From the NCBI GenBank assembly GCA_965229545.1, contig OZ245887.1, forward strand, positions 1,244,443-1,308,442: a stretch of 64,000 nt of DNA. Reading direction: 5' to 3'. Of this stretch, positions 33,001 through 39,000 are shown piece by piece (positions within the stretch are counted from its first letter, which is position 1; every line of letters begins with the position of its first letter). The position numbers were made by a program. The stretch comes from Candidatus Megaera sp. (GTDB lineage: Bacteria; Pseudomonadota; Alphaproteobacteria; Rickettsiales; Rickettsiaceae).

Positions 33001-36000
33001 AGCAGAGGAAAGAACTGGTTCAGTGGCGGAAGAATGAAATATTTGAGATAATAAATACCAATGGCGGCATTTGCCTGGATAATAGGTTACTTGCAGGTCT
33101 GGCGATTTATGCCTCCATGGAAGAGAACAGGAACGATGCTTTTCTTGAAAAGCTGAAACAAATTGGTTCAAAGGCAACGTTTCCCGGTAGGAGGAAGAAA
33201 CCGGATGCGAAACCTGGTAACCAGAACGGATCAAAAAATAAGGTATTTTGCAATGTTAAAAAAGAATGAATCCATTTTTGAGAGGAAGAGCGATGCCAGG
33301 AAAAAGATCATGTTAGGCGGTTTGCTGGTTAAGGCTGGTTTTGATCATATGCACCCACATGATGCAAGCGTGCTTTACGGAATGCTCCTTGATTGCAAAA
33401 GAGCCTTGAAGGAGAAACCGGAATTGATGTCCAGGTGGAGGAAAATGGGGCAGGCGTTACTAGCAGGTAAAAATGATAAATTTATGAAACCGGAGCAGAA
33501 AGGGAATGAAACATAGACCGCAGATACCGGTCTATAAGCAGGGGAATCTTGGCGGATGCTTCCTGTTTATAGACCTAATCGACCTAAAAAAAAGGCAGAT
33601 AGCGATTTTAATAATAGCTATTTTCATACCTGTTTCAGGAGATGCCAGTCTGACATGCAAAGGCCGGTTTGTCAATCCGATAACTGACGTTTGCTGGAGC
33701 TGTTTATTACCTATTTCAATCGGCACTCCCCCTACCGGTATAGAGATTGGCAAGGGCTCAAGTCCCAAAAAACGGGATACTAAGAATCCTAAAAGTCCCG
33801 TCTGTATCTGCAGCAAAGGAACTCCGCCGATACCGATACCCGGTATTTCCATAGGCTTCTGGGAGCCGGTACGTCTTGTAGATATTACAAGAACACCGTA
33901 TTGCATGGTAAATCTCGGCGGAGTTATGCTTGGCTCCGATATGCGAAAAGCTAGCAGTTACAATAGAAGCTATGGGAATAGAACTGCGCATAACAGTTTC
34001 TATCATGTTCATTATTACATCTATCCGCTTATTTACTGGCTTGAACTGATCACCGATTTTGGTTGTCTTGAGGAATCGACTTTTGACGTAGCATATATGA
34101 GTGAATATGACGTTACCTGGAACGATGAGAAACTACAGAGTCTGCTTAATCCTGAAAGTATTCTGTTTGGCAATATGCTAGCTCAGGCGGCGTGCGGCCT
34201 GGACTGCGGAGCGGCTACGTTTAACCTGCCTGACGATAGCATGTTCTGGTGCACGGGGTGCTGGGGTAACATGTATCCGTTTAGCGGTGCCAATGCGGAT
34301 CATATAGGCGGAGTCCAGAATAGCTCATTACTTACTACCAGGATACTGGCCAAGATGCACCGAATAGGTCTGGCGCAGGAAACTTCAACATCGGACGGCT
34401 CAATAAATGGAGAGATCTGTCGTAAATTCAGGGCTCCAAAGATTAAAAAGAGCCAATACAAATTACAGATGGTAAATCCGGCAACAACTTCTTCAGGTAT
34501 AGGGTGTTGGCCGATTGGATTATCCGACATGTTATATAGCAGTTTGAAGGAATATCCGTATGACGGGCAAGATTGGGGGTACTTGATATGGCGCAAGAAA
34601 AATTGCTGCTGGCTCTAGCGGTCTTAATTCTCGTGTTTCTTGCGGCAAGCAGCAAGGCAGAAGAGAGGATGGAGCTATTAGCAGAACAGGTAGCGGAAGC
34701 TGATAGAGACCGGCTTAAAGGTCTTATAGAGAAATCTCAGGAAATTGTAATGAGTACTATCGCTGAAAAATACAGGGAGTTACTTATGCTACGGCAGCAG
34801 CGGGATGGAGTAATAGAGAATAAGAATTTAACGGGCTCAGGTGGGCTAGGTCGCAATTACAGAGACTCGGTTTTGCTAAAAGTTTTTATCAGTAGCAGTA
34901 TGGGCCCTGAGCTACTTAAAACTTACGTTAGGCAAGCAAGGCGCTACGGAGGGGTTCTGGTATTTAACGGCTTGCCCGATAATTCCTGGGTAAAACTGAA
35001 TAAGACGGTAACGGAAATAGTAGGTAATGAAGAAGGAGTAGGGATACAGATTGATCCTGAGGAATTTGACCGATTCAACATTAAAACGGTACCTGTCTTT
35101 GTACTTATTAAAGAAGCCGACCTGATAACGGGTACATCTGAGGAACCGGCGGAAGATAAGGTTATATACGACAAGGTAACAGGAAATATCGGTATAGAAA
35201 CTGCATTACGTTTATTTGCCGAAAAAGGGGAATTAGGGCTTGAAGCACAAGCAAAACTGGAGAATGCCGGGAATGATTAAGATTAGAGTTAAATTAACAA
35301 TGGTTTTATGCGACCTGTTATTGGAAGCGTCTGCTTATGGAGCTTACCGGGATCCGATTGCAAAAACCAATATTAATCCCAAAACGGATTTATTTGAAAA
35401 GGAGATAGAGGATTACGGTACTTTCCGGGATCATATGGGTTCTTTAAAGGAGCAGGCGATTGATGGTATCGCCTCTCCCGGTAATCTTGAATTGATAACG
35501 GATAAAACGTCTGATGAGATTAAGTCGGCGGCAAGTGATTTAAATGTGATCAAAGCAAGCGATTTACAGGTAAAAGGTCAGGAAGAGGTACTAAGAACTG
35601 GTATGACGGAGTTACATGTCGATTATACGGATCCGTTAATAGCCGGACATAAAAAAGATGCCACCCGTATTGCAGAAGCTTCCGGAGTACTGCTTGGAAA
35701 ACTAACGGAGCTATTTAAAGAGTTTGGAATAGATTGCCGGACCGTCAAAGGAAACAAGGTAACCCAACCTGAGTATTATATTGATGTTAAAAAGGAGCAC
35801 GTAAAGGATACCGTTTATACCAGGACTATGTGTGAAGAACCAAGAAACAGGTACAACTGTCATGACAGTCTGACTGTGCGTTGTATTAAACGTGGAATGA
35901 AGTGGGGGGGCGTGGCAGAATAAAACAATTATTATACCATATCAATCAATCCCTTGGCACTGGTGGATTAGAAGTTATTTCCGTCCTACAGACACTAGAG

Positions 36001-39000
36001 TAGCAAATAGCTTTAATCGTTTTACGATTAATCCCGTCTATCATCAGGAAATAGCAATATACATAGCAAGTGCTATAGGTGTAAGTTTGTCCCAAATCAA
36101 TGTAGGAACTCAGGATATAACAGTTACTCATATATGGGATGCATTATACCCCGGATATTCACAAAACGTTGTTTCTAATACCTTGCGTGGTGGAGGTATA
36201 CCTAGCGGTCTTTCTATACTTAACGGTCTTTCTGTAAAAGCCTCTAAGGTAACTTTCTATTACCAATATCGGAGCGGTTCTGAAATCTGCGCCGAGTGGG
36301 TTGATGAATGGGATGAGGTATGTGGGTTGGAGCCATGAAAATATTAAAGTTACTAATGATAATCCGGATGTTCTCAAATAACAGTTTAAGCGGTTTAGAT
36401 GAGCAGGATAACGGTTTTAAGAATCAGGCTTTCCTTAAGGCATTTGTCGGTAACGGTATGGGAAAGATTTTACCTGATGAAACCGATAAGAACAAAATCG
36501 GAGAATGGCGCGAATGATTAAGATTAGATTTAAATTAACGATAGCTTTGTGCATCCGATTACTGGAAGTAACTGCTTATGGAGCTTACCGGGACCCGATT
36601 GCAAAAACCAATATTAATCCGAAAACGGATTTGTTTGAAAAGGAGATAGAGGATTACGGTACTTTCGAGAAAGCTATGGACGTTTTAAAGGAGCAGGCAG
36701 TTAACGGTATTACTTCTTCCGGAAATCCTCAATTGATATCGGATAAAACGGACGATGAAATTAAAGCCGCAGCAGGTGATTTAAGTACCATCAAGGCAAC
36801 GGATATAGAAGCAAGGGGAAGGGAAGAGGTAGTAAGAACAGGTATAATGGAGGAATTGCATGTTGATTATACAAATCCATTAAATACCGGGCATCAAAAA
36901 GATGCGATTCATATTGCAGAAGCTTCCGGGGTGCTGCTTGGAAAACTAACGGAGTTATTTAAAGAGTTTGGAATAGACTGCCGGACCGTCAAAGGAAACA
37001 AGGTAATTGAACCGGAGTATTATATTGAAATAAAGAAGGAGAAGGTAAAGGACACTGTTTATACCAAGACCATGTGTGAAGAGCCACGAAACAAATATAA
37101 CTGCCGGGATATTCTATCGATGCGTTGTAGTAAACGTGGGATTAGGTGGTGATTGTGGCAAAGCCGTCGGATAGTTATCTCAGGTAGCGAGTTATTTCAC
37201 TCAGGAAAAACCGTATTCTGGGTAGATCATACCGGAAGAAGCTGTTTTGAATACAAACTCTCGGTGGGGCCACGAACTATTGGCGGTTTCTTCAGCGCTC
37301 CTCGTACTATCCCGCCTAATTCCTATCATGTTGCACTGATGAGAGAGTTTCTAGTTACTAAACACCCCGGGAGCACTCTTGATAATATCAGCACCGAGAT
37401 GAGTTCATGGTGGAGTGGCGGTCTGTTTTCGGTAGACGGTTGGTATTACTGTGGTAGGAGGCTCGGTCATAAAGATTATGGATGGAGAAGTTATACGGTA
37501 AATTACCAATATAGGGACGGTTATCCTGTATGTGAGCAGTGCTCAGAAGATTGGAGCGAGACATGTATACTCCAATAAAAAAACTGAATTTTATTCTAGA
37601 AATCTCTATCTGCTGGCTAATCCTGATCTTTGGCAACATGGAAGTTGCAATTGCAGGCACAAGATTCATCTCAAGTCATCCTTGTAGTGATACGGGCAGG
37701 GTTTGCGTAAGCGGCGGCGGAACGCGCAATATAGACGGCTTTGACGTATACCGTGATTGCTGGGAGTGGTCTTATACTAAAACCTGTAATTATCCAAGTA
37801 AGAATAACTGCCGGAGTTATAGCGGGTGCTATTTTGTAGCAAACGGCGGGTGCCTGCTTTTTGATAGTCATGGTAATTGCGTTAATCAGGAGCGGGAATT
37901 TTCCTGTAAAGCCTGGGAGCCCGGAGTAATTGAAAACAAAACCGTCAGGTATGATTTAACGCAAAAAGACGGCCAGGAAGGTCTGATCTGCAAGGGTATT
38001 CCCTGTATGGACGGGAATTGTATAGATAAAAGTTATTTAACGAACGGCGAGATGATGGATTCAATATCGAAGCTTTATGCTTTTAGCAAGATGAAGCCTG
38101 ATAGGGATGGAAATTTCAGTTTATTTCAAGGGTCAGGCCTACACTGTTCTAAAAAAATGGGCGAATATACGAATTGCTGTCGAATAAACATGAAGGGTTG
38201 GGGAAAAGAATTCAGGGCAAGGTGTAATAAGGATGATCAACTGCTTGCAGATAGCAGGTCAAAGAATTTATGTGTTTATGTAGGTAAGGAAAAAATAAAG
38301 TCGCTAGGAGTAACTACCGTTGTTAAACATCATTTCTGCTGCTTTGGCAATATGCTCGATAAAGTGGTGCAGCTGCAAGGTAAAAAACAGCTTGGGTTAA
38401 ACTTCGGTAGCGGAGGTTCACCGAACTGTCGTGGACTGACTCTTGAGGAAATGCAGAGGATAGATTGGGAGCAGGTGGATTTTACGGAGTTCATTGAGGA
38501 TTTCAAAGGAAAGTTTTTTGGTAAATATCAGTCACCTAACCCTGATGAAATTGCAGGAAGAGTGAATAGCTCAATGCCGGGTATTAGAAAAGGGGACGAT
38601 GATCCTTTAGCCCCGCCGAGTAATATGACCGGCTGGAGCAGTAATATACCTGATGAGCTAGAGGATTAAGGGGGCGTGATGAGAAGAAGAACCTGCAATA
38701 TTCCGATGTTTTTACTGATTGGATTAACGGTATTGCCTTCTATGGCTTTGGCTGAAGTCGGTTTTTTAGATCAGCGTTACCGTGGCTGGTTATGGTTTGA
38801 AGAAAAGGAGGGAAGATCCAATTCAAAACCCTATTCCGGTGCTAAGGGTAATGAAGTGCTTGATGAAGAAATTACGGTAGAAGAGGCAAAGGGCGAAGTT
38901 GAAGGCATAATAAAAGAGCTGGAAGATTTGCGTTATGTCTATTTGGCCAGGCCGAATTTCAGGACACAGAAAGCCTACCGGGATAAGCTCGGTGAAATCA

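Follow-up and report, generated by a model that had tools for sequence, protein, structure and literature searches.

The stretch of DNA analysed here is a window of 64,000 nt from Candidatus Megaera sp. (contig OZ245887.1 of assembly GCA_965229545.1; coordinates are window positions throughout), within which an F-type transfer operon carries, between its trbC gene and a short traN gene, two tandem cassettes belonging to an unannotated secreted protein family that we label X. The reading we favour, with somewhat better than even confidence, is that the two cassettes are pseudogenes from a putative two-gene, TraN-like mating adhesin, the tip subunit of which would be exchangeable between elements and stackable within a locus. 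To our knowledge, TraN tips are the only known determinants of the species that an F-like plasmid can enter, and work on them has been confined to single polypeptides from enterobacterial and Acinetobacter plasmids.

BLASTP comparison of the two read-through cassette proteins gave an E value of 4e-124, with a clean alignment over residues 1-222 that included an identical 31-aa block (AYGAYRDPIAKTNINPKTDLFEKEIEDYGTF), followed by ~120 residues that could be aligned only with many gaps, and then by a common tail, YQYR..C..W.E.W.E.C. At the nucleotide level, direct repeats link 35252-35551 to 36493-36792 and 35603-35902 to 36847-37146, each being 82% identical; the duplicated stretch begins 21 nt 5′ of the cassette ATG and so takes in the overlap (ATGA) between the trbC stop and the cassette 1 start. 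Both cassettes are broken at the same codon, Gly213 of a W-G-x-W-Q motif lying at the boundary between a conserved N-terminal part (N-module) and a variable part (V-module), cassette 1 by a frameshift in a run of seven Gs (G7) and cassette 2 by an in-frame TGA. A preliminary description of the locus, made by eye, had proposed just such a pair with similar N-terminal parts, non-aligning middles and a common tail, a duplicated trbC 3′ junction and interruptions at one WGxWQ boundary, and all of this was confirmed. Contigs from each of three independent runs of the same organism (runs X1-X3, with word depths of ~1000x, ~150x and ~6x) carry both G7 and TGA, which are therefore not assembly errors.

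Downstream of the cassettes, the same description had placed a separate gene for the C-terminal part of TraN with its own signal peptide, and the profile searches agreed. The predicted protein matched PF06986 over profile positions 1-240 of 240, whereas of the 572 positions of TIGR02750 only 290-571 were matched (185 bits versus a cutoff of 422); hhalign against 22 full-length (~580 aa) alphaproteobacterial TraN proteins placed it on columns 282-570 with a probability of 99.9%. The C-half thus follows the signal peptide directly, and the full-length, single-polypeptide architecture is absent. Its relatives form a large family with a uniform start, a signal peptide and then RF.S.YPC, and the longer ones among them are extended C-terminally (by a coiled coil), not N-terminally. 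Judged by its sequence, the gene at 37563-38669 is a traN without the N-terminal and variable half. Because trbC is followed directly by a 578-aa traN, with no X, in a sphingomonad plasmid, and because the window TraN corresponds to columns 282-570 only, X occupies the place of the missing TraN half, with its order (conserved, variable, conserved) and rough size. By eye, the X tail (..EDWSE.C) also bears a weak likeness to the canonical 'ET.DE..C' just upstream of the short-TraN start, which is too short to serve as evidence.

Homologs of X numbered 106 in a word-indexed search and 232 clusters at 50% identity in an exhaustive one; they are about 320-460 aa long, and annotated records label them 'hypothetical protein'. 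The architecture comprises a signal peptide, a conserved N-module of ~190 aa, and paired long, Cys-bearing segments, predicted as beta-strands, which flank a V-module of ~105-200 aa that comes in discrete unrelated types; four invariant Cys precede the variable part, and two Cys and two Trp are invariant in the tail. Both window cassettes match the X profile, over positions 1-214 and 213-350, although cassette 2 has lost the invariant Trp343 and neither holds an uninterrupted frame of 320-460 codons. A PDB sequence search with the X profile returned one chance match only (E = 1.1), and a literature search found no paper on a gene between trbC and traN. Natural X-TraN fusions were looked for as well, and all of the best 150 of the 232 clusters were at most 460 aa, too short for a fusion to the TraN domain; 'long' members of 421-425 aa proved to be artefacts of annotation, produced by reading on from a traN 5′ remnant into a second cassette.

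The order trbC-X-short traN-traF-traH was found in every locus that held both trbC and traN, in Megaira, Rickettsia, Finniella and other metagenome-assembled genomes (MAGs), and this order recurred in two more short-TraN contigs approached from the TraN side. X is always a separate gene on the same strand whose boundaries overlap those of its neighbours, and the genes are therefore coupled; in the window, cassette 2 and traN overlap by 16 nt. The best matches of the window element are Megaira and Rickettsia elements. On these sequence comparisons, X is a gene of the F-type transfer systems of Rickettsiales-type elements, that is, of Rickettsiales amplified genetic elements (RAGEs) and their plasmids. 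A trbC-X(-traN) block was also observed in a Flavobacteriaceae MAG (L015) and a Paraglaciecola MAG (L024), which may be mis-binned symbiont contigs or signs of a wider host range.

The linkage also bears on a different reading of X, as an exclusion or self-recognition determinant, or a pilus or assembly accessory, that has no part in a TraN adhesin and whose V types mark element 'groups'; arrays would then arise because genomes carry several RAGE types. Such a role would suit a protein without homology to the TraN N-half, and discrete variable types are typical of exclusion systems too (TraG/Eex, TraS/TraT); moreover, Megaira genomes carry several mutually recombining RAGE copies and plasmids. 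What makes us regard it as unlikely is that X is strictly linked and coupled to a traN without its N-half and is absent where traN is full-length, and that it is large, Cys-rich and secreted with a predicted long beta frame, whereas exclusion factors are small and are inner-membrane proteins or lipoproteins; the exclusion genes that are known lie near traG and not between trbC and traN.

AlphaFold2 (AF2) models were obtained for intact orthologs of the two cassettes. For the cassette 2 ortholog (P0001), the pLDDT (predicted local distance difference test) was about 90 over residues 195-353, where the model has strands at 195-212, 216-223, 321-333 and 336-353 with a mixed insert between them; the cassette 1 ortholog (P0047) has outer strands at nearly the same places (194-211, 215-222, 325-332 and 335-352), likewise at a pLDDT of about 90, and a different alpha/beta insert. 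The invariant Cys of X fall on the outer model strands. Such models would fit a conserved beta stalk that carries a variable distal domain, as described for TraN (PMC9246713).

The V-module behaves as a discrete, exchangeable unit, as the preliminary description had supposed. When N- and V-modules were clustered separately, a shuffled table resulted, with one N-cluster combined with five V types and the two commonest V types each found on six or more N-clusters. An intact counterpart is a locus in the Ca. Megaera polyxenophila chromosome (L006), collinear with and 93.8% identical to window 35188-42575, in which neither X gene is broken. Between the two, the synonymous divergence (dS) was 0.02 in both V-modules; the N-modules gave 0.18 and 0.51, and traN, traF and traH gave 0.22-0.31. 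A given V type is therefore near-identical across otherwise diverged backgrounds. In addition, five metagenomic relatives keep flanks 87-95% identical to those of the window and carry a different V-module in the first cassette, with breakpoints at ~35866-35876 and ~36294-36398 that coincide with the module edges; the tra block as a whole shows a patchy identity profile as well. The sequences thus give good support to a modularity in which N- and V-modules are reshuffled between elements. Of the recombination that had been proposed at the outset, the exchange of V-modules is real, but it proceeds between elements over evolutionary time and not as switching within the window locus.

The preliminary description had staked its reading on a survey of cassette number and diversity in other elements, and this turned up two or three X genes, with wide V diversity, in 12 of the 72 loci holding both trbC and traN (60 had one X, 11 two and 1 three); over all loci, two or more X were present in 20 of 104. 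In most array copies a single open frame covers the full model; apart from copies that run off a contig end, those that depart from this are interrupted by insertion sequences (ISs) or frame breaks (L005b, L032, L064, L047). Neighbouring N-modules are 57-97% identical while their V-modules have no BLAST similarity in 11 of the 12 typed arrays, the one exception (L084) having 52% V identity. A second RAGE copy in the M. polyxenophila chromosome (L005, NZ_CP104166.1 1007817-1018878; locus coordinates 2532-4865) holds three X genes, of which the middle one is interrupted by an insertion with two IS-like transposase open reading frames (ORFs), and the traN behind this array is interrupted too.

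How cassettes came to be stacked can be read from the spacer between them, which in the window carries remnants of a traN 5′ end and a trbC 3′ end and is, to judge by its sequence, the scar of the recombination between such ends that stacked the cassettes. The scar in pMegNEIS296 differs, ~190 nt from a traN 5′ end being fused there to ~105 nt from a trbC 3′ end, so arrays arose more than once. The spacer is also a linker ORF of 44-60 codons with ATGA overlaps on both sides, open in two alternative frames, and it is open in all arrays of a Megaira-like backbone group whose upstream cassette tail ends ...CGLES/P (the window, L005, L006, L025, L026, L031-L033, L037, L038, L045 and L047); this suggests that translational coupling through the array has been kept. 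A sediment metagenome about 99% identical to the window (run X4) holds the intact array together with a form in which 36372 is joined to 37755, leading from cassette 1 straight to traN without cassette 2 and presumed to be the one-cassette parent, and a form joining 35866 to 36294, in which the first V-module is replaced or skipped; several array versions therefore coexist in one community.

Arrays might nonetheless be functionless, neutral by-products of frequent recombination among multicopy RAGEs that are heading to decay. The patchy identity of the tra block does indicate rampant recombination, junction scars are present, and array members have been broken by IS insertion or point mutation in L005b, L032, L064 and the window. 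We find this explanation improbable, since the same two-gene array is intact in lineages about 0.2-0.3 dS apart, most copies have their full length, with unlike V types side by side in nearly all typed arrays, and the linker ORF that preserves the start and stop overlaps stays open in two frames across the backbone group. Furthermore, the ratio of nonsynonymous to synonymous divergence (dN/dS) of the X genes against L006 was 0.19-0.28, so they have been constrained for most of their history.

In the window itself, both cassettes have lost their function as genes. Run X4 has one G fewer at 35904 (G6), a G for T at 37150 (GGA) and a G for C at 37542 that restores the invariant Trp, and P0047 and L006a are intact orthologs of cassette 1. 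Cassette 2 carries window-specific changes at conserved positions, among them Q219R, R229H and W343C. The damage extends beyond the cassettes: traG is frameshifted at 42200-42340, where the window reads ...AVAGSAAVLCI* and the L006 ortholog ...AVAGSAGGLMHLSGQ..., its C-terminal 474 codons resuming in another frame (42335-43759); traB (27384-28670), beside an IS copy, is apparently split into a 200-aa ORF without a Pfam match and a 178-aa ORF matching TrbI over 44-187; and traD, encoding the coupling protein (48351-49256), begins at position 145 of TrwB_AAD_bind, its N-terminal part gone, directly downstream of another IS copy. The four IS630-family copies in the window are mutually 99.3-99.8% identical, one lying inside the traK-traB region and one directly upstream of the truncated traD. 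The simplest reading of the lesions is recent, independent pseudogenisation, that is, decay and not regulation, and the window locus is a dead copy in a decaying element.

By contrast, the preliminary description had read the lesions as a possible switch, with G-tract slippage or recombination between the conserved N-termini turning cassettes on and changing the tip on one TraN. The G-run does sit exactly at the N/V boundary of cassette 1, with G7 here and G6 in run X4, L006 and P0047; both interruptions affect the same codon; and N-modules 82% identical could support recombination. Yet two copies that are both off do not make a switch state, cassette 2 is interrupted through a G>T nonsense substitution, away from any repeat tract, that slippage cannot reverse, and the run is only 6-7 nt long, with the in-frame G6 standing in relatives. 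The G7/G6 difference was seen only between strains, as a comparison of assembled contigs, and runs X1-X3 each gave a single G7 contig with no alternative at ~1000x in run X1, although minor variants may go unseen in contigs. In other loci most array copies are intact simultaneously, those interrupted having IS insertions or frame breaks and not tract changes, and at least three further tra genes are broken in the window element. No inverted repeats were found in 34500-39000 and no recombinase at the locus, the nearest being a serine recombinase about 14 kb away. A switch is accordingly very improbable, more so than either of the other explanations weighed above. Two ways in which the cassettes might still be read through were considered and rejected: recoding of TGA, which is the stop of trbC and of cassette 1 in the same operon, and programmed frameshifting, as rescue of G7 needs a +1 shift, whereas the G GGG GGC heptamer could give a -1 slip.

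In the two-gene adhesin that we propose, the work of one canonical TraN would be shared by X and the short TraN, the latter serving as a conserved outer-membrane base and X providing the stalk and an exposed, partner-recognising tip. V-modules would be swapped between elements by homologous recombination in the conserved flanks, and unequal recombination of a traN 5′ end with a trbC 3′ end would stack a second or third X with a different V before the single traN, which may give one transfer system several specificities at once. The window array is the one that is intact in Ca. Megaera polyxenophila, its two copies having been inactivated here, by the changes of G6 to G7 and of GGA to TGA, in the course of the decay of the whole element. 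Beyond the window, we suggest more tentatively, and at a little less than even confidence, that Rickettsiales-type F systems in general use a two-gene TraN with a constant base (short TraN) and an exchangeable tip (X), their mating range being changed by V swap or X stacking. A physical partnership between X and TraN and a role in recipient recognition are what we infer from these features.

Several observations weigh against this proposal. Calling the cassettes 'TraN N-terminal', as was done initially, was not upheld by homology and holds as a positional analogy only: neither read-through cassette had a Pfam or NCBIfam match at E ≤ 0.1, no TraN model of NCBIfam matched any of 40 X members at E ≤ 10, and hhalign of family X against the N-half of the 22 full-length alphaproteobacterial TraN proteins gave a probability of 0.1%. 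The first ~190 residues of both X models are predicted as helical at low confidence, Foldseek of both models against the PDB found nothing below E = 0.2, and the putative stalk-and-tip geometry is read from secondary structure and confidence values. The PDB apparently holds no full TraN structure. The hosts are obligate intracellular bacteria, and we know of no recipient receptor for any RAGE. Finally, simple decay does not explain why both lesions fell on Gly213: cassette 2 offers 170 one-step nonsense changes, of which G>T in the homologous TGGGGA is one, a chance of roughly 1 in 170 per nonsense substitution. The coincidence may be chance, or may reflect a shared mutational hotspot at TGGGG, a G-run being a natural frameshift hotspot. 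Selection for tip-less truncated products is a further possibility, although according to the models such X proteins would lose the partner strands and two of the six Cys.

If the two-gene adhesin exists, no specificity determinant would have been proposed before X for the transfer of RAGEs between obligate intracellular bacteria, and the split gene would be a new genetic layout for mating-pair stabilisation. If confirmed, it would show that conjugation specificity can come in a natural plug-in form, the tip having a gene to itself that is exchanged and stacked, and would offer a handle on RAGE spread among intracellular symbionts and pathogens such as Megaira, Rickettsia and Orientia; and a conserved 'hypothetical protein' missing from published RAGE gene lists would acquire a name and a testable role.

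The features of the locus and the IS copies are collected in Table 1. The tra block (22000-44000) has a G+C content of 41-44% and a strong positive GC skew, its flanks 30-36% G+C. Elsewhere in the window, a gene for a 513-aa large serine recombinase (52689-54230, +) overlaps at its 3′ end a tRNA-Arg(ACG) gene (54201-54277, -), an overlap that may mark an element boundary or integration site. An ORF at 15233-16243, with group II intron reverse transcriptase, maturase and HNH parts, starts at position 118 of RVT_1 and is probably a 5′-truncated intron protein, and a 268-aa ORF at 22259-23065, just upstream of the tra genes, has a RickCE-like/Ulp1 (C48) protease domain and is probably effector-type cargo. 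The element's relaxase-helicase and primase-like genes are probably two very large ORFs at 6328-13540, one of 1089 aa with an AAA_30 helicase domain and one of 1322 aa with Toprim and DUF6371.

Table 1. Coordinates of the trbC-X-traN locus and of IS copies in the window.
Feature	Position	Strand	Remarks
traU	33506-34618		F-type transfer operon
trbC (F-type pilin assembly)	34573-35280	+	PF09673 E = 2e-24; TIGR02742 above cutoff
Cassette 1 (gene X1), whole	35273-36338	+	354-aa ORF once one G is removed
Cassette 1, N-module	35273-35905	+	signal peptide and conserved codons 1-211/212; four family-invariant Cys
Cassette 1, G7 run	35904-35910	+	+1-nt frameshift; G6, in frame, in relatives
Cassette 1, V-module	35907-36287	+	type 'WGAWQ.KTIIIPYQSIPWHWW', in shifted frame; AF2 model of ortholog P0047
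Cassette 1, conserved tail and stop	36288-36338	+	CAEWVDEWDEVCGLEP; family-invariant C/W/C columns
Spacer between cassettes	36335-36517	+	60-codon linker ORF; ATGA overlap with each neighbour
traN 5′ remnant in spacer	36305-36367		second, MKILK-type traN; blastn to pMegNEIS296 traN 5′ end, 89% over 63 nt
trbC 3′ junction remnant in spacer	36493-36528		blastn to window trbC 3′ end, 89% over 36 nt
Cassette 2 (gene X2), whole	36514-37578	+	354 codons with in-frame TGA
Cassette 2, N-module	36514-37149	+	82% nucleotide identity to cassette 1 N-module
Cassette 2, in-frame TGA	37150-37152	+	for GGA (Gly213); Gly in P0001, L006b and L005c
Cassette 2, V-module	37153-37530	+	type 'WGLWQSRQIVISGSELF'; AF2 model of ortholog P0001, pLDDT about 90
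Cassette 2, conserved tail and stop	37531-37578	+	CEQCSEDWSETCILQ; family-invariant Trp is Cys here
Short traN	37563-38669	+	368 aa, own signal peptide; PF06986 E = 2.5e-44
traF	38676-39503	+	PF13728 E = 7.6e-30; synteny
traH	39500-40897		
IS630-family transposase	20317-21348	+	DDE_3 and HTH_33; 343 aa
IS630-family transposase	26504-27535	-	DDE_3 and HTH_33; 343 aa
IS630-family transposase	47232-48263	+	DDE_3 and HTH_33; 343 aa
IS630-family transposase	62569-63600	+	DDE_3 and HTH_33; 343 aa

Among known systems, the shufflon of IncI plasmids (PilV of R64) determines recipients by alternative C-terminal segments on a constant N-terminal part, which the recombinase Rci inverts so that one variant is made at a time. 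The window cassettes resemble it in that variable segments stand as neighbouring cassettes, but they are complete, co-oriented genes without inverted repeats or a local recombinase. Closer are the F-like plasmids, in which the tip of TraN (TraN alpha, beta, gamma or delta) selects which outer-membrane protein of the recipient is bound (Low et al. 2022, PMC9246713) and, in IncF, IncA/C and IncH plasmids, decides the recipient species (PMC9246713, PMC13104618). Here as there, the gene follows trbC and precedes traF, the conserved Cys-rich C-terminal part is PF06986, and the central segment comes in discrete, structurally unrelated types between conserved parts; unlike there, the C-half and the variable part are encoded by separate genes, both with a signal peptide of their own, X is without detectable sequence similarity to the TraN N-half, and the hosts are intracellular symbionts. 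More than one tip per transfer system, as in the arrays, is also found in TraN-V of Acinetobacter baumannii plasmids, a single TraN bearing two tips that are distinct (He et al. 2026, PMC13104618), and 2.5% of plasmids with F-type mating-pair formation (MPF-F) carry 2-3 traN genes (PMC13104618). In those cases, however, two tips share one polypeptide or the whole traN is duplicated, whereas here only the tip-bearing gene is multiplied before a single base gene. Published RAGE gene lists go from trbC straight to traN (PMC10732058, PMC4564193). Compared with known TraN, the split layout is thus new in having the variable part on its own gene, exchanged as a module and multiplied before one base gene, an arrangement whose putative function would be the choice of recipient.

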